Positions 16,924 to 63,934 of a DNA stretch of 64,000 bases are shown here, piece after piece. A model generated the notes under the pieces. The model did no database searches and was not told the origin of the DNA. It saw only the letters and a program-made list of their open reading frames with translations. This stretch comes from Nitrospirota bacterium (lineage in GTDB: Bacteria; Nitrospirota; Thermodesulfovibrionia; UBA6902), in the NCBI GenBank assembly GCA_003354025.1, contig PIVU01000001.1:2435-66434 (forward strand). Reading direction: 5' to 3'. The translations under genes were made by a program, and so were the position numbers. Within the stretch, counting starts at the first letter, position 1, and each line of letters starts with the position of its first letter.

Positions 16924-18015
16924 TCAACTCTTTTTTTGAAGGACACTTCCCTTTAACTGGCCGCAGGCTGCCGCAATGTCAGCGCCTTTACTCTTTCGTA
17001 CAATTGCGGCGATTCCAGCTTTATTCAGGACCTCTGTAAATAATAGAATCTGCTGCTCCAGGGGCTTATTCAGTTTTACAGAAATATTGTCCTTGCCATT
17101 AATGCCCGGAGCTGAAGCTGAAGGATTGTAAGGGATCAGGTTTACTTTTGATTTTACTCCTCCTATTAGACGTACAAGCCGGGAGGCGTCCTCTTTTGTA
17201 TCATTGATTCCCCTGAGCATAACGTACTCAAATGTAATGCTTCTGTATGGCTGTAGAGGGTAGTTTTTGCAGGCATTAATAAGTTTTTTAAGAGGGTATT
17301 TTTTGTTGACGGGCATGATCATGTCTCTTGTTTCATCCATAGTTGCATTCAGAGACACTGCCAGGTTAACCCCAGGGCCATGGTCGGCCAGTTTGCTGAA
17401 TCCCGGTAAGACACCCGATGTTGATACCGTAATCCGCCTCTTTGAAAACCCCATGGGTCCTGTGAGTATCCATAGGGCCCTGTTGACTTCATCGAAATTC
17501 ATGAAGGGCTCTCCCATGCCCATAAAAACGATATTCGTAATAGAAGGGGAGGCGCTGTCGGAAGTTGATTTGATATGTTTTTTAACCGCAAGAACCTGGT
17601 CGTAGATTTCGTATGCTTTAAGGTTTCTTTTCAGACCCATTGAGCCGGTTATACAAAAACGGCAGCCCATTGCACATCCAACCTGTGAAGATATACAAAG
17701 TGTAAAACAGTGTTCACCAAGGCTATTCGGAATCAGCACACTCTCTATCTCTTCACCATCTTCCAGTTCAAAAAGAAATTTTAATGTGCCGTCCTTTGAT
17801 GTCTGCTTTTTTTTCATGAAAAGATTGCTTATAAATGCTACGTTTTTTAATTCTTCCCTGAACTCGACGGAAAGATCTGTCATATCATCAAAAGACCCGG
17901 CGATGTTTGTATATATCCATTTTAAAATCTGCCTGGCCCTGTAAGGCTTATGTCCCATGCCAAGGACCGCTTTCAGAATTATATTGTCAGATGCTGCTTT
18001 AAAGTTTATCTTCAT
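16924..18015 (-). CDS. rlmN: Radical-SAM 23S rRNA (adenine2503-C2)-methyltransferase.
   Basis: CISSQVGCAMGCRFCITG radical-SAM motif, plus the C-terminal GADIAAACGQL region of the RlmN/Cfr family. Confidence 0.85.
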   Translation of the reverse strand: MKINFKAASDNIILKAVLGMGHKPYRARQILKWIYTNIAGSFDDMTDLSVEFREELKNVAFISNLFMKKKQTSKDGTLKFLFELEDGEEIESVLIPNSLGEHCFTLCISSQVGCAMGCRFCITGSMGLKRNLKAYEIYDQVLAVKKHIKSTSDSASPSITNIVFMGMGEPFMNFDEVNRALWILTGPMGFSKRRITVSTSGVLPGFSKLADHGPGVNLAVSLNATMDETRDMIMPVNKKYPLKKLINACKNYPLQPYRSITFEYVMLRGINDTKEDASRLVRLIGGVKSKVNLIPYNPSASAPGINGKDNISVKLNKPLEQQILLFTEVLNKAGIAAIVRKSKGADIAAACGQLKGSVLQKKS

Positions 18016-18167
18016 AATTGCCGATATATTATATCTAAGGACAGGGAGATTTATCTCAGGCGTTTATATAAAGTAAGACTTGACAAATATTAATTCAAAA
18101 GAGATACTTTACTGATTATAAGGATATTTTTTATCAAAGGTTATAATAATTAATAATCGTACATAAT

Positions 18168-33473: not shown

Positions 33474-33608
33474 GAACGTCCAACATCGAACATCGAACGT
33501 CCAACGTCGAATGAAAAACAAACATACAATACCGAACATTCAGCAATTACTCCTGTCTTTCTTTTTTTCATTCAACATTCAATGTTGGACGTTGGACGTT
33601 CGATGTTC
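33474..33608. repeat. Dyad-symmetric heptad-repeat array: five direct SAACRTC units, a 72-bp AT-rich spacer, and four inverted GAYGTTS units.
   Basis: GAACGTC CAACATC GAACATC GAACGTC CAACGTC ... AATGTTG GACGTTG GACGTTC GATGTTC, read directly from the sequence. Confidence 0.7.
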
Positions 33609-33752: not shown

Positions 33753-33764
33753 TTTATGTCGAGC

Positions 33765-35471
33765 ATGAACGTTTTCGGAACAAAGATGACAGCAGGCACC
33801 GAGTCACAGAAAATCAATCCTTTATTAGACCTGAACAAGATTGATATAAATGTAGGCGGAGGCTCCGGCTTTGATAAAGTCACCTTTGACTCACTCCTCA
33901 CCAGTCTGAAATCCGAAACCATTGACAGAAGTCCCGCCCCAAAAAATGATTATCATGCAGAGCAGGCAAAGAGAAATCAGGAGTATGCTGACAGGAATAA
34001 CTCAATTGGAAATAGAAGTGATGAGAAGCGGACTCAGGACAATAACAGGGACATTGAAAGGACTGACAAGACTGATGAGACGGGCAAGAGCAATGAATCA
34101 TACCGCGCAGAGACGGAGAGGCAAAAAACTAAATATGCAGATAGCAAGTCAAAATCGGATGAAAATGAAATAAGTACTGACTCCTCTGCAATTAATAAAG
34201 ATTCTGAGCAGTCCAATGAATCAAAAGAGAATGAGACATCTGAAGGCAATGCTGTCAAAATTGGTTCCCTCCTGTTTGAACTGGCAAATACTAAAACAGC
34301 AGAACTGACCAATGCCGCAGCAAACACTGAGGGCGCAGCAGCTGTAACAACAGATACAGAGCAGGAATCAGGTCAGGGTCTGAAAAACGGAGCATTACTT
34401 AATGAGCTGTTGAAAGGTAAAACTGATGAAACAGTAACGAACACATCAGCTAATGGAAAAGAGGCCCAGGGTCAGGCCGGATTGAAAGTCGGGGACTTGT
34501 TGAAGGACCTGGTTAATGCACAAGCTACTCAAGAAGGAAAAAACCAGGCAGAAGAAGCAAAAGGTGAAAATGCCAAGGCTATAAATACTGAAGCATTGAA
34601 AACAGAGAACGGTCTTAAAGTAGGAGAGCAGATTAAGACAACTGCTGATGTGAAAACCAATGGCATTGAGAAAGAACTGGCAAATGTTACGGCAAAGCAG
34701 ACTAATGCAGACAGCGAAATTACAGATACTGAAGTAGATGAATTGATTAAGAAGCTTGACAATAATGGTAATGCCGATAAAAAGTCTGATATTAAACAGG
34801 ACCAGGTTAAAGAACATAAACTGCAGGACTTTATGGCCCAGAAGGACACTCAGGAATCCAACAACGCAAAAGCCACAATCAGTAAAGTCCAGCCCGGAAT
34901 GGTTGAGAATTTATTCCGTGAAAGCGGAGTAAAGCCTAATGTTAACGCCACTGCAAAAACAGCCGGTGAAAATTCTGATACAAATAATATTAGTGCGTTA
35001 AGTGATGTCAGCGCAAAAAGCGGCGGTTCTAAAATTAATGCAGCATCTCCAACTGGAACTATTGCAAAGCCTTCAGGTTTTGCCGATGTTGTTAATAAGA
35101 TTGTATACGTAGCCAAGGGCGACAACAAACTGGGTGTAACTGTTGAGCATAAGGACCTCGGACAGCTCAATATAAAGCTGAGCCTTGAAAAAGGTGTTGT
35201 CAATGTCCACATTAACACGACTGATAAGGCTGCAAGAGAATTTGTTGAAAGCAATGTACAGCAGCTGGTCGACTCCCTCTCAAAGAACGGTGTCAGCATA
35301 GGAGGGTTCTCGGTAGGGTTAAAGAACCAGCAGCAGCATCAAGGGTTCTCAAATAATAATTCGAATAAAAACGATAAGGCTTTTTCCATTAATGGAATAG
35401 AGCAGCAGGAATATTCAAAGGCCGCCGCTAATGTCTATAGCAATAATGGCCGGGTGAGTGTATTCGCATAA
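33765..35471 (+). CDS. fliK: Flagellar hook-length control protein FliK. The start is uncertain: the ORF-track ATG at 33756 lies inside the -12 promoter element.
   Basis: Long, low-complexity acidic/Thr-rich N-terminus and a conserved C-terminal FliK domain (GVTVEHKDLGQLNIKLSLEKGVVNVHINT). Confidence 0.75.
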   Translation: MNVFGTKMTAGTESQKINPLLDLNKIDINVGGGSGFDKVTFDSLLTSLKSETIDRSPAPKNDYHAEQAKRNQEYADRNNSIGNRSDEKRTQDNNRDIERTDKTDETGKSNESYRAETERQKTKYADSKSKSDENEISTDSSAINKDSEQSNESKENETSEGNAVKIGSLLFELANTKTAELTNAAANTEGAAAVTTDTEQESGQGLKNGALLNELLKGKTDETVTNTSANGKEAQGQAGLKVGDLLKDLVNAQATQEGKNQAEEAKGENAKAINTEALKTENGLKVGEQIKTTADVKTNGIEKELANVTAKQTNADSEITDTEVDELIKKLDNNGNADKKSDIKQDQVKEHKLQDFMAQKDTQESNNAKATISKVQPGMVENLFRESGVKPNVNATAKTAGENSDTNNISALSDVSAKSGGSKINAASPTGTIAKPSGFADVVNKIVYVAKGDNKLGVTVEHKDLGQLNIKLSLEKGVVNVHINTTDKAAREFVESNVQQLVDSLSKNGVSIGGFSVGLKNQQQHQGFSNNNSNKNDKAFSINGIEQQEYSKAAANVYSNNGRVSVFA

Positions 35472-36281: not shown

Positions 36282-37640
36282 ATGAGTGTAACATCAATGT
36301 TTACAGCAGTCAGTGGAATGAACACCAATGCCACATCACTTGGAGTCGTTGGTGACAATGTAGCCAACATGAATACCCACGGGTTCAAATCAAGCTCGGT
36401 AGTATTCGCTGATATTGTCAGTTCACAAGGAGGATCAAACAGTATTGGTAGAGGCGTGCGTATAAATGAAGTCGGTCAGGAGTTTTCACAGGGCGCTTTT
36501 GAGAACACCCCTAATGTCCTGGACATGGCTATAGATGGTGACGGTCTGTTCGTTGTTAAGAAAGATAGTAATACATTTTATACAAGGGCAGGGCAGTTTG
36601 GTATTGACAAGCTGGGTTATGCCACCAATCCCAACGGTTTTGTTCTACAGGGTTATCAGTTTGATGTTCAGGGCAATTCATCTACTGTTGTCGCTGATGT
36701 TAATGTTGCTTCAATTAGTAGTACGCCGAATGCTACAACGGCTTTAAGTGTATATGCAAACCTGGACTCGACTGAAGTGACACCGGCAGCATTTGACGTT
36801 ACAGATCCTTCAACTACATCCAATTTTACCAGCACAATTACGGTTTTTGATTCGCTGGGTACTTCTCACGTTCTTAATATTTACTATAGGAAGGGACAGA
36901 CTATAGCAGGGGCTGGTACTCCTGCCAACGGTGGTACAGAAGCGGGTGGAGGAGCTACATGGCCAGTAGGATATGGAGCGATAGGAGGAAGCGAATGGGA
37001 ATGGTATGGTGTTGTAAGTGCCGCAGATGCAACTTCCGGTGTAGATACAGTTATGGCTCAGGGAAGACTGGAATTTAATACGGATGGAGCTCTTTATTAC
37101 GGTCAAACTCTTACGTCTCCAACAGGAGGATTTGATTTTGCAGGAGGAGCTACACAGAACCAGGCTATTACTACTGATTTCGGAGACGATATTGCCTTTG
37201 ATGCGACACTGGGACTTGAAGGAACAACGCAATTCGGCGCCGTATCTACCACAGCATTTCTTGATCAGGACGGCTATTCCTCCGGTACATTGAAAAGTTT
37301 AAGTATTGACAGTGAAGGTTTTATGTCAGGTGTTTTTACAAATGGTCAGACCAAGACAATTGCGCAGGTCGTTCTCGCGAAGTTCATATCTCAGGAGAGC
37401 CTCATAAAAACAGGTAAGAGTCTATATGCAGAGTCATTTGGATCAGGTCAGCCGATCGTTACAGCCCCGGGAAACTCAGGTACAGGTGAAATCCTCTCAA
37501 ATACACTTGAGCTGAGCAACGTTGATCTTGCCGGAGAATTCGTAAAAATGATTATCCTGCAGCGTGGATTCCAGGCCAACTCAAGGATGGTATCCACATC
37601 TGATGAACTTTTGCAGGAACTTGTTAATTTGAAGAGATAA
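36282..37640 (+). CDS. flgE: Flagellar hook protein FlgE.
   Basis: N-terminal flagellar rod/hook motif (MSVTSMFTAVSGMNTN...VANMNTHGFK) and the C-terminal ELVNLKR motif. Confidence 0.9.
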   Translation: MSVTSMFTAVSGMNTNATSLGVVGDNVANMNTHGFKSSSVVFADIVSSQGGSNSIGRGVRINEVGQEFSQGAFENTPNVLDMAIDGDGLFVVKKDSNTFYTRAGQFGIDKLGYATNPNGFVLQGYQFDVQGNSSTVVADVNVASISSTPNATTALSVYANLDSTEVTPAAFDVTDPSTTSNFTSTITVFDSLGTSHVLNIYYRKGQTIAGAGTPANGGTEAGGGATWPVGYGAIGGSEWEWYGVVSAADATSGVDTVMAQGRLEFNTDGALYYGQTLTSPTGGFDFAGGATQNQAITTDFGDDIAFDATLGLEGTTQFGAVSTTAFLDQDGYSSGTLKSLSIDSEGFMSGVFTNGQTKTIAQVVLAKFISQESLIKTGKSLYAESFGSGQPIVTAPGNSGTGEILSNTLELSNVDLAGEFVKMIILQRGFQANSRMVSTSDELLQELVNLKR

Positions 37641-37658
37641 TATAGTACCCTCTTACTT

Positions 37659-37728
37659 ACCTCCCCCCCCCCAACGGATCGGGGGAGGTTAGAGGGAGGA
37701 TGATCTAGGCAGTCATCCTCCCTCTACC
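37659..37728. repeat. Two adjacent GC-rich stem-loops with a C10 homopolymer, downstream of flgE.
   Basis: ACCTCCCCC(C10)...GGGGGAGGT and the perfect 14-bp stem TAGAGGGAGGATGA / TCATCCTCCCTCTA. Confidence 0.6.
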
Positions 37729-37773
37729 CCCCACCTTTAAATCAATTGCGAATTATGAATTACGAATAAAGAC

Positions 37774-37793
37774 AAAAAAAAAGGCTCAGAGCC
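37774..37793 (-). terminator. Possible weak intrinsic terminator for the two-CW gene, read on the minus strand.
   Basis: Minus-strand GGCTCTGAGCC followed by T9. Confidence 0.3.
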
Positions 37794-37832
37794 TTGCTCG
37801 AACCTTCGTTGAATTGGAATGTCTTTTCAGTC

Positions 37833-38144
37833 TTATTTTGCTGATGCGTGGTAGATTTGCCCGGGTTTCAGGAGGACAAAGTTGTCGGCCCCTTCTTCGG
37901 TTTTGATCTGCTTGAATACTTCACAGGACATGCATGATACTGACTTCTGGGCAAAATCACCCTGTACCTTGTCGCCGCAAAAAGTGCCTGCTATGGCCCA
38001 GCATATACGTCCCGCATTGTTGCCGCCGTTGATTCCGTCACATGAAGAATCGGTGGTGGCCGGGCATATACCTAGTTCGGAATTTTTATTCCCGCCGGGT
38101 TCTCTTCCGCACTTTTTAATGTCCCAGCAATTAACGTTTGACAT
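37833..38144 (-). CDS. Small cysteine-rich 'two-CW' domain protein.
   Basis: Two CW-containing cysteine motifs: NCWDIKKCG and CWAIAGTFCG...CMSCEVF. The RBS, AAGGAGG, sits 6 nt upstream of the ATG. Confidence 0.6.
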   Translation of the reverse strand: MSNVNCWDIKKCGREPGGNKNSELGICPATTDSSCDGINGGNNAGRICWAIAGTFCGDKVQGDFAQKSVSCMSCEVFKQIKTEEGADNFVLLKPGQIYHASAK

Positions 38145-38200
38145 TGTTCCCCTCCTTTCAAAAAACTAAAAAAAACTGTTACAGAAAGTCTATATAATTA

Positions 38201-38228
38201 TTATCGGAACAACAATAATAATTCTTTA
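38201..38228 (-). promoter_or_regulatory. Candidate sigma-28 (FliA) promoter for the two-CW gene.
   Basis: Minus strand reads TAAAG-N15-TCCGATAA. The same geometry appears upstream of flgM and of the che operon. Confidence 0.45.
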
Positions 38229-38236
38229 ACCAACCC

Positions 38237-38285
38237 CTGACAACTGACTACTGATAACTGGCTACTAACGTATTAAGAATACGTT
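38237..38285. repeat. Four tandem CTGRYWA heptads followed by the perfect palindrome AACGTATT-aag-AATACGTT.
   Basis: CTGACAA CTGACTA CTGATAA CTGGCTA, then the 8-3-8 inverted repeat, which ends 2 nt from the cheB stop. Confidence 0.65.
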
Positions 38286-38286
38286 C

Positions 38287-39336
38287 TTAAACTGCATTAA
38301 TTAATTCACCTGCTATTTCATTAAGGGGGACAATTTTGTCGGCAAGGCCTGCTTCTACTACTGAACGGGGCATGCCGTAGACAACACATGTTTCTTCACT
38401 TTCGGCGATTGTTTTACCCCCCTTGTTCTTGATTTCCTTCATCCCAAGTTCACCATCGTTCCCAAGACCCGTCAGAACTACTCCCAGCACGTGTCCTGAA
38501 AAATTTGCTACAGCATTTTGCATGAGAAGATCAATGCAGGGTTTGTATATATACTTGCCTGTGTCCTTAATGAGTGATATAGAGGATTCAGTCAGTTTCT
38601 TTCTTTCTATCCCCATATGTCCTCCACCCGGAGCAATATACACAACACCTTTTTTAATCGTTTCACCATGTTCTGCTTCTTTTACGTAAATTTCACTCAG
38701 CTGATTTAAACGCTCGGCAAAAGGACCTGTAAAGGCCGCCGGCATGTGCTGGGCAATGATTATTGGCACAGGGTAATTTTTCGGCAGGCAGCTAACAATG
38801 CTTTGTAGTGCTTTGGGTCCTCCTGTAGAAGAACCAATGGCCACTATACCGACCCTTCTGGTTGACGTGTATTGCTGGGTTTTTTCCGGCATGTCCAGAG
38901 GTTTTGACGCAGGTTCAGGAGTGGCTTTTCTTCTCCTTACCCGGAGTTTACCAATTTTCTTGATCTTGTCTATGAGAGTATTTTTTATTTTGACAATGTT
39001 AATCGAAAGATCGGAAAGGTTCTTTGGAATGAAGTCCACAGCGCCGAGATCAAGCGCTTCAAGCGTAACATGGGCCCCCTCATTTGTCAGTGAGCTGACC
39101 ATTAATACGGGTACAGGTGTTTTTTCCATTATCTGCTTCAGGGCTTCAATACCGTTCATGCGGGGCATTTCAACATCAAGAGTCACAATGTCCGGTTTTA
39201 ATGAAGCGACTTTCTCAACCGCTTCCATACCATCACGTGCCATGCCTATAACATCAATTTCCGGGTCCGATGAAATCATGCTGGAGAGAGTGTTTCTCAT
39301 AAACGCTGAGTCATCAACAATTAGTACTTTAACCAT
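38287..39336 (-). CDS. cheB: Chemotaxis protein-glutamate methylesterase CheB.
   Basis: REC domain plus the methylesterase domain (GSSTGGPKAL, AQHMP). Confidence 0.9.
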   Translation of the reverse strand: MVKVLIVDDSAFMRNTLSSMISSDPEIDVIGMARDGMEAVEKVASLKPDIVTLDVEMPRMNGIEALKQIMEKTPVPVLMVSSLTNEGAHVTLEALDLGAVDFIPKNLSDLSINIVKIKNTLIDKIKKIGKLRVRRRKATPEPASKPLDMPEKTQQYTSTRRVGIVAIGSSTGGPKALQSIVSCLPKNYPVPIIIAQHMPAAFTGPFAERLNQLSEIYVKEAEHGETIKKGVVYIAPGGGHMGIERKKLTESSISLIKDTGKYIYKPCIDLLMQNAVANFSGHVLGVVLTGLGNDGELGMKEIKNKGGKTIAESEETCVVYGMPRSVVEAGLADKIVPLNEIAGELINAV

Positions 39337-39874: not shown

Positions 39875-41113
39875 CTAAAATCCAAAATCATTTAATAAAG
39901 ACTCAACATCCGATTGTGATACTTTATCTGCCGGACCGTTTGGTGCTTTTTCTGTTTTGTATTCATCGTACGTAACTGTAGTCGGTTTTACCTCGACATC
40001 AGCGTGGTCGTTTAAACCGAATTTAGTTATAAGTGTTAAGAGTTCTCCTTCAACACTACTGACAAGATTGATGACCTTCTTTATTGTCTGACCGGTGATG
40101 TCCTGAAACTGCTGTGCAGTCAGGATTTCTGTCATGTTTTCATCAAGAGCCCCTTTAAAGGCTTGAAGGTAAGCCACATCTTCATCATGTCCCTTAATAT
40201 TATTGAGATGTGTGGTGAAGTCCTCTTCTTCTTCGAAATACCGCTCAACTATCCCCATAGTTTTATTTGCGGCATCTTCTGTTTTAGAAATTACAAACTG
40301 GAGCTTGTCAACGGCATTAGGCACATCGTTTTCTGTAAGTCTTTGCAGCCCGCTATCAATAGCGCCCTTAAAGTCCTCAAGAGAATCATGCAGTTTCCTG
40401 GTGATTTTACCAACGTCCTTAAATATATCGCTGTCAGTTGCCTTAGTCAGTTTGCCAACGATTTCCTCCACTTTCTTATATTCATTATTTGAAAGGGCGT
40501 CCATGAACTCAAGGATTAAATCATATATAGCGTGCTTGGGATCATTCTCTTCAAGTTTGTCTGCGAGGTAGTCCTTGGCATTATGCAATTCCTTAATGGT
40601 CACTTTGCCGCCCATAGTCTCGACTTGCCGGGTAACTTCCACGTTTGAACCGTCTGCTGACTCTTTGATATCTACTATGGCGTCTTCCAGAAGACTCAGG
40701 TCTGCAATGGGGAGGAGTTTTTTAATATCTAAAAGAACTATTAGTTTGTTTTTTAACTTTGCGACACCTGCAATGCTGTCTTTATTATTGTTGACGAAAC
40801 TTTCGGGAGGCTCAATCTCCGACTGATCAACATTGACAACTCCTGTTATTCCATCAACTACTATACCGAATGTTATCTGGCCGGTTGCCAGAACTATGAC
40901 TGTGTTGCCGGCGTCCTCGCCATTGTCCGAATGTAACAGGTACTTGAGATTGACTACCGGTATGATAGTGTCTCTCAGGTTTGTAATACCTCTTACATAA
41001 GAGGGGAGATTCGGCAGGGCGGTTATTGACGGCATTGTAATGATCTCGCGTACATTTAGTATAGGTATCATGTATTCGCTCGAATTGATATTAAAACCAA
41101 TGTATTGTTGCAA
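39875..41113 (-). CDS. Fusion protein: an N-terminal CheW-like domain joined to a C-terminal CheZ-like phosphatase.
   Basis: Residues 1-140 have the CheW fold ([41 protein letters not shown]). The C-terminal half carries [36 protein letters not shown] and the catalytic [14 protein letters not shown]. These match CheZ [36 protein letters not shown] and AQDFQDLTGQVIKR. Confidence 0.65.
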   Translation of the reverse strand: [412 protein letters not shown]

Positions 41114-46513: not shown

Positions 46514-46541
46514 TTATCGGTATATTAAGTTCATTTCTTTA
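46514..46541 (-). promoter_or_regulatory. Candidate sigma-28 promoter of the che operon.
   Basis: Minus strand reads cTAAAG-N15-ACCGATAA, about 75 nt upstream of the HEAT gene start. Confidence 0.5.
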
Positions 46542-47018: not shown

Positions 47019-47157
47019 ATAATGCTCCTCCCGGTACCATTGCAGAATCGTAACTATATATATTTGTATATGTATACTGTGGTCATATAATTCCGTGTAT
47101 ATCTATTATCGGGATAAGGGAGGAATTCTTTAGGTATTTTTACTAGGTAAGTGAAGA

Positions 47158-48594: not shown

Positions 48595-48622
48595 TTATCG
48601 GTAAATGTGTCCATTTCTTTAG
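48595..48622 (-). promoter_or_regulatory. Possible sigma-28-like promoter for the GGDEF gene, with a spacer one base shorter than the others.
   Basis: Minus strand reads cTAAAG-N14-ACCGATAA. The -35 context, CTAAAGAAATG, is the same as at the che promoter. Confidence 0.3.
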
Positions 48623-57003: not shown

Positions 57004-57824
57004 TGAACACTGCGGGTGGAAAGACGGTCAGGACTATAGCTATAGCAAGCGGGAAGGGGGGTGTTGGTAAGACAAACATTACTGCAAGTTTGGCGATTGC
57101 ATTACAAAAGCTCAATAAGAAGGTAATGATATTTGACGCTGATCTTGGAATGAGTAACATTGATGTCATACTTAATCTTGCAACTAAATATAACATTGAG
57201 CATCTGTTTAAAGGGGAAAAGAAATTGAAGGACCTGATTGTTGAAGGGCCTCATGGAGTAAAAGTGCTTCCGGCAAGTTCGGGAATCCAGGAACTGACTG
57301 CACTGGATGAGTTTCAGAGGCTTAGGCTTATTGAGGAATTTGAGACTTATGATGAAAATCTTGATTATCTTTTGATTGATACATCATCGGGGATAACTTC
57401 AAATGTAGCTTTTTTCTGTATGGCTGCGCAGGAGATACTGGTTGTGACATCAGCAGAGCCCACTGCACTGACCGATGCCTATGCACTAATGAAAGTGCTC
57501 TTCACAAAGTATCAGGAAAAGAATTTTAAGGTTCTTGTTAACAATGTAAAGGACAATAAAGAGGCGGTGGAAGTTTATAACAGACTGTCAACTGTTACTG
57601 AGAGGTTCCTGAATATTTCAATTGATTATATAGGATATGTACCGCACGATGATTCAGTGACGAAGTCGGTCAGGCAGCAAAGAGCTTTTATGGACAGATA
57701 CCCTAACAGCGAAGCATCCAGAAAACTATCGGAGATTACGGAGAGAATCAATGACGATGATAGTCACGAGGTCAAAGGATCGCTTCAATTTTTTCTTGGA
57801 GGACTACTAAATTCAAAATGCTAA
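57003..57824 (+). CDS. flhG: MinD/ParA-family flagellar number regulator FlhG (FleN).
   Basis: Deviant Walker A, SGKGGVGKT. Confidence 0.85.
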   Translation: MNTAGGKTVRTIAIASGKGGVGKTNITASLAIALQKLNKKVMIFDADLGMSNIDVILNLATKYNIEHLFKGEKKLKDLIVEGPHGVKVLPASSGIQELTALDEFQRLRLIEEFETYDENLDYLLIDTSSGITSNVAFFCMAAQEILVVTSAEPTALTDAYALMKVLFTKYQEKNFKVLVNNVKDNKEAVEVYNRLSTVTERFLNISIDYIGYVPHDDSVTKSVRQQRAFMDRYPNSEASRKLSEITERINDDDSHEVKGSLQFFLGGLLNSKC

Positions 57825-58549
57825 AATTCAAAAATACAATCACGGAAGAACAAAAAGAAGAGATCATTAAAGAGTTTCTGCCCTATATCAAGTACACTGC
57901 GTACAGGCTTTCATGGAAGCTCCCACAGCACATAACCATTGACGATCTGATTAGTGTAGGGTTGATGGGGCTCATGGATGCGTTGAGCAGGTTTGAACCG
58001 GGGAAAGTAAAACTAAAGACATATGCAGAATTAAGAATCAAGGGATCTATGATTGATGAACTGCGGGCAACGGCATGGATACCAAGGTCAATGAGGAAAA
58101 AGATTGAATCCATCAACAAAGCCCGGGCCGTTCTTGAGAGAAAAAACGGCAGTGCTCCTGATGATGTTGAAGTGGCCAAGTCAATGGACATGCCACTGAA
58201 TGAGTATTTTAAGATTCTTCAGTACGCTACGTCATCAAGTCCTATCAGGCTTGAGGATTTCCGAAACAGCAAGTATTCAGACAGTGACTTGAATATCACT
58301 GAGTGTATTGCAGACCCCAAGGCAAAGAGCCCGCTGAATGTTCTCGAAGAAAAGGACACGAAGGAAAAACTGAGTGAACTAATTGAGACCCTGCCTGAAA
58401 AGGAAAGACTTGTGCTGGCCCTTTATTACTACGAAGAAATGACTATGCAGGAAATAGGTAAGGTCCTGCGTATAACAGAGTCGCGTGTCTGTCAGATACA
58501 CAGCCAGGCGCTGGGGAAATTAAAAACAAGGATTAAGAAGACAGTATAG
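57818..58549 (+). CDS. fliA: Flagellar sigma factor sigma-28, FliA.
   Basis: Sigma-70 regions 2, 3 and 4 (YAELRIKGSMIDELR, LYYYEEMTMQEIGKVLRITESRVCQIHSQAL). Confidence 0.9.
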   Translation: MLKFKNTITEEQKEEIIKEFLPYIKYTAYRLSWKLPQHITIDDLISVGLMGLMDALSRFEPGKVKLKTYAELRIKGSMIDELRATAWIPRSMRKKIESINKARAVLERKNGSAPDDVEVAKSMDMPLNEYFKILQYATSSSPIRLEDFRNSKYSDSDLNITECIADPKAKSPLNVLEEKDTKEKLSELIETLPEKERLVLALYYYEEMTMQEIGKVLRITESRVCQIHSQALGKLKTRIKKTV

Positions 58550-62022: not shown

Positions 62023-62057
62023 AATTATGAATTACGAATTACTAATTACGAATGCAA
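62023..62057. repeat. Tandem AATTRYG heptads in the flgH-flgI spacer. The same motif also occurs at 37748-37775.
   Basis: AATTATG AATTACG AATTACT AATTACG here, and AATTGCG AATTATG AATTACG at the other locus. Confidence 0.5.
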
Positions 62058-63172: not shown

Positions 63173-63561
63173 TGAATCTTTTGACAGGAATAAACGGTCA
63201 ACTGCCTGTTAAGGCAAAACAGTCGGCAGACAAGGCCCAGTTAACTGTTAAAAAGCAGCAATCAGCGGAAGAGAGCATGAACAGCGATGATATAAGACAG
63301 GCAGCTAAAGAGATGGAGTCCCTGTTTGCTTTTCAGATGCTGAAAGTGATGAGAGAAACCTCGGACAGTATGTCGGGCGAAAAGAAGGGAAACGGTTATA
63401 ATACTTACATGAGCATGTTTGACACGGAAATTTCTAAAGTGCTGGCTGAAAGAGGCATGGGACTTCAGGATTCTATTGTAAGGTGGCTTGAAAGACCAGG
63501 TGTAAATGATGTTGACAGCAAGGAAAATACAGAAATTAGCATAACTAATAGTAATGATTAA
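63169..63561 (+). CDS. flgJ: FlgJ-like rod-binding protein: rod-binding domain only, with no muramidase domain.
   Basis: AAKEMESLFAFQMLKVMRET...MFDTEISKVLAE, the Rod_binding motif. 130 aa. Confidence 0.65.
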   Translation: MMNLLTGINGQLPVKAKQSADKAQLTVKKQQSAEESMNSDDIRQAAKEMESLFAFQMLKVMRETSDSMSGEKKGNGYNTYMSMFDTEISKVLAERGMGLQDSIVRWLERPGVNDVDSKENTEISITNSND

Positions 63562-63585
63562 AGTAATTGAAATAAATGCCGATAG
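63559..63585 (+). promoter_or_regulatory. Sigma-28 promoter of flgM.
   Basis: TAAAG-N15-GCCGATAG, about 50 nt upstream of the flgM ATG. Confidence 0.55.
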
Positions 63586-63634: not shown

Positions 63635-63934
63635 GTGATGATAATTAATGGTAATGGACCAATTGATGACAGGAAGAATCTGGGAAATGTTCAGGATCTG
63701 AATAAGAAGCGGGAAATTGACAAGGGAGCAGACACTCAGAAATCAGGAAGCAGAGCTGATAAAGTAAGTCTTTCAGGACAAGCTAAAGAAATCAGTGAGC
63801 TTAAGGGATTAATCGGAGAAATTCCTGACATAAGAAGAGACAAAGTTGAAGACGTTCAAAGAGCAATAGACACCGGTACTTATAACTTTGATACGCTGAA
63901 AATAGCTCAGAAAATATTAGAGGAAGAACTATAG
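63635..63934 (+). CDS. flgM: Anti-sigma-28 factor FlgM.
   Basis: 99 aa. The C-terminus, DKVEDVQRAIDTGTYNFDTLKIAQKILEEEL, matches the FlgM sigma-binding region. RBS AAGGAGG. Confidence 0.8.
   Translation: MMIINGNGPIDDRKNLGNVQDLNKKREIDKGADTQKSGSRADKVSLSGQAKEISELKGLIGEIPDIRRDKVEDVQRAIDTGTYNFDTLKIAQKILEEEL

Follow-up and report, generated by a model that had tools for sequence, protein, structure and literature searches.

The gene that follows cheB in the 64,000-nucleotide stretch of Nitrospirota DNA analysed here (the window) encodes a stand-alone two-CW protein, and comparison of related sequences strongly supports its being a conserved terminal member of the chemotaxis (che) cluster of the Thermodesulfovibrionia (Nitrospirota). 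On balance, we favor the reading that its product works on its own as a cytoplasmic sensor module, probably with a bound metal or Fe-S cluster, that belongs to the late flagellar regulon and would feed into chemotaxis. The locus appears, on strong support from its sequence features, to be a self-contained unit composed of a sigma-28 promoter, a Shine-Dalgarno sequence, a 103-aa open-reading frame and an intrinsic terminator (Table 1). The open-reading frame of the original prediction, with both of the Cys-Trp motifs that had been quoted, was present downstream of cheB, and its Shine-Dalgarno sequence, claimed to be perfect, was indeed AAGGAGG. The differences between this gene and its orthologues are dominated by third codon positions (e.g., 56 versus 13 and 8 at the other two), which indicates a translated gene; that it is real and under strong purifying selection is thus strongly supported. 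The protein contains eight cysteines and, as read from its sequence, neither a signal peptide nor a membrane segment, and no second two-CW copy was found elsewhere within the window. A search of Rfam over positions 37500-38400 returned only chance matches to miRNA-like hairpins, far under the gathering scores, so a riboswitch or leader RNA is not indicated.

Table 1. Positions of the two-CW locus, the sigma-28-type promoters and other features of the window.
Feature	Position	Strand	Details
Stand-alone two-CW protein gene	37833..38144	-	103 aa; domain at residues 5-82, tail at about residues 86-103
Shine-Dalgarno sequence AAGGAGG	38151..38157	-	6 nt before ATG; by sequence inspection
Sigma-28 (FliA)-type promoter, two-CW gene	38201..38228	-	TAAAG (38228-38224), 15 nt, TCCGATAA (38208-38201); about 57 nt before ATG
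Intrinsic terminator, two-CW gene	37771..37795	-	6-bp GC-containing stem, then T9 run
Four tandem heptads	38237..38264	.	CTGRYWA on +, CAGnnnT on -
Perfect 8-3-8 palindrome	38267..38285	.	AACGTATT-CTT-AATACGTT; directly after cheB stop codon
cheB	38287..39336	-	Upstream neighbor; Pfam CheB_methylest and REC; NCBIfam CheB, 451 bits
CheW-CheZ protein gene	39875-41113	-	412 aa
flgE	36282..37640		Convergent with two-CW gene
Sigma-28-type promoter, cheY-cheC-GGDEF operon	18000-18026
Sigma-28-type promoter, che operon head	46515..46541	-	HEAT-repeat protein first; same spacing class as two-CW promoter
Sigma-28-type promoter, 141-aa GGDEF fragment	47107-47132
Sigma-28-type promoter, 451-aa GGDEF protein	48596-48621
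Sigma-28-type promoter and flgM	63559-63584; flgM 63635-63934	+	TIGR03824, 57 bits (cutoff 40.75)
fliA (sigma-28)	57818..58549	+	After flhF and flhG; TIGR02479 FliA/WhiG, 249.6 bits (cutoff 189.6)
GC-rich nested inverted repeat	37649-37735		Second arm pair at 37649-37667
(AATTAYG)n heptad arrays	37744-37767; 62023-62053
GAACGTC heptad array	33474-33511		Upstream of fliK-like gene (33756..35471)

A resemblance to the two-CW domain had been proposed from the Cys-Trp motifs, and the profile search suggested as a check gave a score three times the cutoff for the NCBIfam two-CW domain, NF045718 (106.1 bits versus a cutoff of 35, E = 9e-31, model positions 2-79 of 80). Because membership in NF045718 is clear, the identity of the protein is not new: from its sequence, PGAP would call it a "two-CW domain-containing protein", a name already carried by one homologue. 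A Pfam search with the same protein recovered no family at E ≤ 1. A large protein database contained 508 homologues, the best 120 of which are 67-88% identical and nearly all 103 aa long; those among the best 120 with a named source come mostly from metagenome-assembled genomes of Nitrospirota/Thermodesulfovibrionia. By an exhaustive profile search, the two-CW family comprises 1,524 clusters at 50% identity.

The residues N5, C6, W7, C12, G13, R14, G18, G25, C27, G41, G45, R46, C48, W49, G53, T54, C56, C71 and C74 are conserved in at least 92% of 149 diverse two-CW domains, among them C6, C12, C27, C48, C71 and C74 in at least 99% and C56 in 92%; E8 (87%) and P28 (89%) lie slightly under this level, and C35 is variable. 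The two CW motifs and the cysteine framework (N-C6-W7-x4-C12-G-R, C27-P, R-x-C48-W49-x6-C56 and C71-x2-C74) are invariant or nearly so, also in the two homologue alignments, and no conserved histidine was found in the two-CW alignments, the 149 diverse domains included. Members of NF045718, some of which are kinases with an N-terminal two-CW domain, likewise have both CW motifs and the cysteine set. In contrast to NF045718 at large, the protein of the window belongs to a 103-aa stand-alone subfamily that is present in multiple copies in Thermodesulfovibrionia, is often sigma-28-driven, and alone keeps a C-terminal tail, F89-x-L91-x-K-P-G95-Q96-x-Y (FxLLKPGQxY). An AlphaFold2 (AF2) model based on a diverse 95-sequence alignment (pLDDT 83.5, pTM 0.75), which replaced an unusable one built with 30 close homologues (pLDDT 41.8), places both CW motifs on short helices and C56 in a small hairpin, with the C71-x2-C74 motif between two C-terminal helices. 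A profile search of the PDB with the two-CW domain yielded nothing at E ≤ 10, no structural relatives of the AF2 model were found in the PDB, and a literature search on two-CW/NF045718 revealed no paper, structure or function.

The che operon that lies upstream on the same strand encodes, in this order, a HEAT-repeat protein, CheR, two CheY-like receivers, CheA, a CheW-CheZ fusion, CheW and CheB, so that cheB is the last enzyme gene of a HEAT-cheR-cheY-cheY-cheA-cheW/Z-cheW-cheB operon. With one representative genome taken per species, 381 loci with a two-CW relative were obtained, and 80 of them were examined. The order cheA-cheW(Z)-cheW-cheB-twoCW, with flgE-flgD-fliK convergent to it, was recognized in 25 of the 80 species-level loci, in keeping with the co-occurrence with che operons for which a check had been proposed, and the same che-twoCW order exists on a contig outside the 80 (L082). 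In a neighbor-joining tree, these che-linked copies form essentially one clade. The open-reading frame is intact and syntenic in the 25 species-level genomes and in L082, so it is neither absent nor disrupted in these relatives.

The CheW-CheZ protein of the same operon carries a CheW domain at its N-terminus and a CheZ phosphatase region at its C-terminus. It is 46-67% identical in most of the syntenic loci, and we know of no previous description of this single-protein architecture.

An upstream sigma-28-like element, TAAAG-N15-TCCGATAA, had also been predicted, and it was recovered exactly as described, together with genes for both FliA and FlgM in the window; the flgM promoter provided an internal positive control for the motif. 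Seven sites of the form TAAA-N14-17-CCGATA occur in the window, compared with 0.5 expected (a count of seven was reached by no shuffle), and six of the seven lie directly 5' of genes, one of these being the two-CW gene. In L081 and L082, the closest relatives, whose proteins are 88% and 83% identical, the block TTAAAG.ATTA.T.TT.TTG.TCCGATAA is the only intergenic sequence kept in both. When upstream regions were scored for a match at 11 or more of 12 positions to TAAAG/CCGATAA, the motif was present before 22 of the 25 che-linked orthologues (88%; Fisher p = 6e-29) and 20 of the 55 other two-CW paralogues (36%; Fisher p = 9e-16), against 12 of 599 other open-reading frames in the same loci (2%) and 20 of 2,000 random 250-nt windows (1%); MCP genes follow several of the 12 matches before other open-reading frames. 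Based on this conservation and on the excess upstream of orthologues and paralogues, the sigma-28 reading of the promoter is well supported at the sequence level. Since a FliA-type promoter is conserved both on this gene and on many paralogues, expression of the gene most likely goes together with that of the late flagellar/chemotaxis regulon.

The classical E. coli sigma-28 consensus is TAAAGTTT-N11-GCCGATAA. Like the promoters of class III (FliA/sigma-28) genes, that of the two-CW gene is of the TAAA-N15-GCCGATAA type, and FliA dependence is predicted; it differs from the E. coli consensus in a spacer longer by 1 nt and in a -10 block that begins with T instead of G. The longer spacer is common to the che-operon and cheY-operon sites and is found in half of the window's own sigma-28-type sites. 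The literature searched contains no two-CW protein in any described flagellar regulon. Because sigma-28-type promoters also precede GGDEF genes and a GGDEF-containing operon (Table 1), the predicted FliA regulon of this organism appears to take in diguanylate cyclases.

The two-CW domain is not confined to small proteins. Pfam scans of the long members of the family revealed it at the N-terminus of soluble histidine kinases (two-CW-[PAS]-[GAF]-HisKA-HATPase-[REC]), as had been stated in the original prediction, and also at the N-terminus of cNMP-binding Ser/Thr kinase-PP2C proteins, an HDOD protein and a USP protein. At the C-terminus, it was found after REC, after GGDEF and, in four proteins that have diverged from one another (P0162, P0271, P0275 and P0276), after the end of the MCP signaling domain. 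All four of these MCP::two-CW fusions are on short contigs and are probably 5'-truncated; P0275 adjoins cheW, and P0276 adjoins another MCP gene. As indirect evidence, these few fusions strengthen the link to the chemosensory system that had been suggested. As judged from sequence, this spread of architectures is that expected of a cytoplasmic input module. Tandem two-CW-two-CW proteins exist as well (P0121 and P0123). Long "two-CW" open-reading frames in L050, L058 and L077 were rejected as artefacts of over-extension in GC-rich DNA.

The remaining loci of the 80 contain paralogues, of which there are up to five per Thermodesulfovibrionia genome. Their neighbors, assigned by eye from representative sequences, differ from one group to another: a HisKA_3 kinase and a NarL-type regulator before the two-CW gene, with a rhodanese and then MCP genes after it; GspD/E/F of type II secretion and then two-CW; a Liv-type ABC transporter, a PocR-like protein, two-CW and a Cys-rich protein; or NtrC-type regulators. 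In a GC-rich bin (L050), the two-CW gene is followed by MCP-cheY-cheW-cheW-cheA. Since many paralogues thus lie beside unrelated genes, the two-CW family is not exclusive to chemotaxis. Context-specific paralogue clades were recognized among loci L019-L080 (e.g., L028, L036 and L051; L039, L048, L064 and L073), and FliA-type promoters recur before paralogues in unrelated neighborhoods.

How the protein might work can be sketched from these observations. The six or seven invariant cysteines probably serve as ligands to a metal or Fe-S cluster; zinc, Fe-S and disulfide chemistry would all be compatible with the sequence. Because the domain occupies the sensor-domain position in soluble kinases and is appended to the C-termini of chemoreceptors, it is probably a sensory input module. 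From the placement of the fused domain it would also follow that the free protein works in trans, on an MCP, CheA/CheW or CheB of the chemosensory apparatus, and does there what the fused domain does in the MCP::two-CW proteins, possibly with the subfamily-specific tail as a docking element. Motility behavior would in this way be coupled to the redox, O2 or metal state. As judged from the titles of the database records, two-CW proteins come only from lineages of anoxic habitats, a restriction that is compatible with an O2-labile cofactor, although only suggestive.

Two other functions of the protein were considered, both of which we regard as unlikely. The invariant cysteines, together with the invariant Gly, Trp and Arg residues, would suit a compact metal-stabilized fold, and the presence of the domain at either end of many signaling proteins, with a conserved tail as a possible docking motif, would suit a structural zinc adaptor that docks on chemoreceptor arrays or other signaling complexes and senses nothing. 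However, soluble kinases typically have their input domains where two-CW is found, at the N-terminus before PAS/GAF, and the confinement to anoxic lineages, suggestive as it is, fits an O2-labile cofactor better than it fits such an adaptor. The protein might, with similarly low probability, be a sigma-28-controlled regulator of flagellar genes, namely a small protein, rich in cysteine and sensitive to redox state, that pairs with a sigma factor or transcription regulator in the manner of WhiB-like Fe-S proteins or ZAS anti-sigma factors, or that gives feedback as FlgM does. Its small size, cytoplasmic location, cysteine content and sigma-28 promoter, the last as for flgM in the same window, would suit this, each genome has several sigma-28-driven copies, and several paralogues adjoin NarL-type or NtrC-type response regulators. 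Nevertheless, the protein lacks a His-x3-C-x2-C motif, it matched two-CW alone in Pfam and NCBIfam and thus none of the Wbl or ZAS families, the conserved position of its gene is the che cluster, and the fusion partners of the domain are kinases, REC, GGDEF and MCP rather than sigma factors or DNA-binding modules.

The Wbl proteins deserve a closer comparison. These [4Fe-4S] proteins of about 80-120 aa are cytoplasmic and rich in cysteine, occur as multiple paralogues and are thought to sense redox state or NO; they have four cysteines (C-Xn-C-X2-C-X5-C) and bind region 4 of sigma-A. The two-CW protein shares with them its small size, cytoplasmic location, cysteine richness and multiple paralogues; it differs in its cysteine spacing, in the lack of any match to a Pfam or NCBIfam Wbl family, and in that its fusions are of the kinase and MCP signaling kind.

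As for expression, cheB is on the same strand as the two-CW gene at a distance of 142 nt, the hairpin after cheB has no T-run, and the che operon has a sigma-28 promoter of its own, so read-through from that operon may add to the expression of the two-CW gene. That read-through is the only source, with two-CW as the last che cistron and its sigma-28-like element incidental, is very improbable, however: the motif is kept in those 22 of 25 orthologous loci although the cheB-twoCW intergenic regions (99-456 nt) are otherwise unalignable, and it also precedes paralogues that have no che neighbors, on a background of 1-2%. As for the product, eight cysteines in 103 aa might also suggest metal storage or detoxification, a metallothionein-like redox buffer or the precursor of a ribosomally made peptide, but this can be practically dismissed, given a fixed and folded domain in which many residues other than Cys are invariant, its fusion to signaling enzymes and recurrent neighbors that include no maturase or radical-SAM genes.

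Between cheB and the sigma-28-type promoter, four tandem heptads and a perfect palindrome had been described as likely protein-binding sites. Both exist in the sequence (the heptads being CTGACAA, CTGACTA, CTGATAA and CTGGCTA), whereas the binding-site reading was not supported, as both are lineage-specific and statistically weak. The heptad array is a weak repeat (TRF score 34, 3.4 copies, 82% matches) that is absent from L081 and leaves only a vague echo in L082, the two closest relatives, although as a class, arrays of period 7 or 14 are over-represented in the window (eight versus 0.33 in shuffles). The palindrome is kept in neither of the two, and perfect palindromes with 8-nt arms number nine in the window versus 9.75 ± 3.9 in shuffles. 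The local fold of the palindrome region is no better than that of shuffles (z = +0.6), and no conserved hairpin was found after cheB in 23 orthologous loci. With no conservation and a palindrome at chance frequency, there is thus no evidence of function for either element. The palindrome was rejected as a terminator or operator of the che operon (no T-run, no conservation, no statistical excess), the heptads were rejected as an operator (no support, and an array not conserved in L081 or L082), and a sigma-70-like TTGTCA-17-TATTAT that overlaps them was set aside because it is not conserved in relatives.

By analogy only, the two-CW domain comes closest in function to the chemoreceptor zinc-binding (CZB) domain, known from Helicobacter TlpD and E. 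coli DgcZ. CZB is a sensory module of the cytoplasm that depends on metal and is situated at the C-terminal end of chemoreceptors as well as in diguanylate cyclases. The MCP::two-CW and GGDEF::two-CW proteins show a CZB-like placement. CZB is, however, a four-helix bundle with a 3His/1Cys zinc site, whereas two-CW has six or seven cysteines, no conserved histidine and no relatives in the PDB, and no sequence relation between the two was detected with Pfam at E ≤ 1. Four features of the two-CW protein appear to be new with respect to the literature searched: its position in the che cluster, the family-wide sigma-28 promoters, the chemoreceptor fusions and the lack of a structural relative. The locus offers a solid lead on an uncharacterized signaling domain and does not amount to a categorically new type of element.

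Redox and O2 sensing for taxis is poorly known in strictly anaerobic, non-model bacteria. The place in the che operon, the FliA promoter common to many paralogues and the fusions to chemoreceptors and kinases all link two-CW to motility, and the protein of the window is a good candidate for a sensory accessory of chemotaxis in anaerobic Nitrospirota. More tentatively, and with rather less confidence than we place in the sensor module proposed for this locus, the family as a whole might represent an unrecognized Fe-S or metal sensor fold that delivers redox, O2 or metal input to anaerobe chemotaxis and to other signaling, either as a chemoreceptor appendage or as free sigma-28-controlled proteins. 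On this view, the several sigma-28-driven paralogues of a genome would each supply the motility apparatus with sensory input in trans. If this is true, two-CW would be a new sensor class in bacterial signal transduction.

Several other repeats were recognized in the window (Table 1). A GC-rich nested inverted repeat lies in AT-rich surroundings between the convergent flgE and two-CW genes; it has arms of 23 nt with 87% complementarity, in addition to the second pair of arms, and is unique in the window. Its hairpins are very stable (-70.8 kcal/mol for a 200-nt fold, z = -3.6), and it is probably the terminator of flgE or an insulator. The two (AATTAYG)n heptad arrays are apparently intergenic and have the exact 17-mer AATTATGAATTACGAAT in common, with six matches at three or fewer mismatches versus 0.43 expected. 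The GAACGTC array comprises 5.4 copies of its heptad, with a TRF score of 48.
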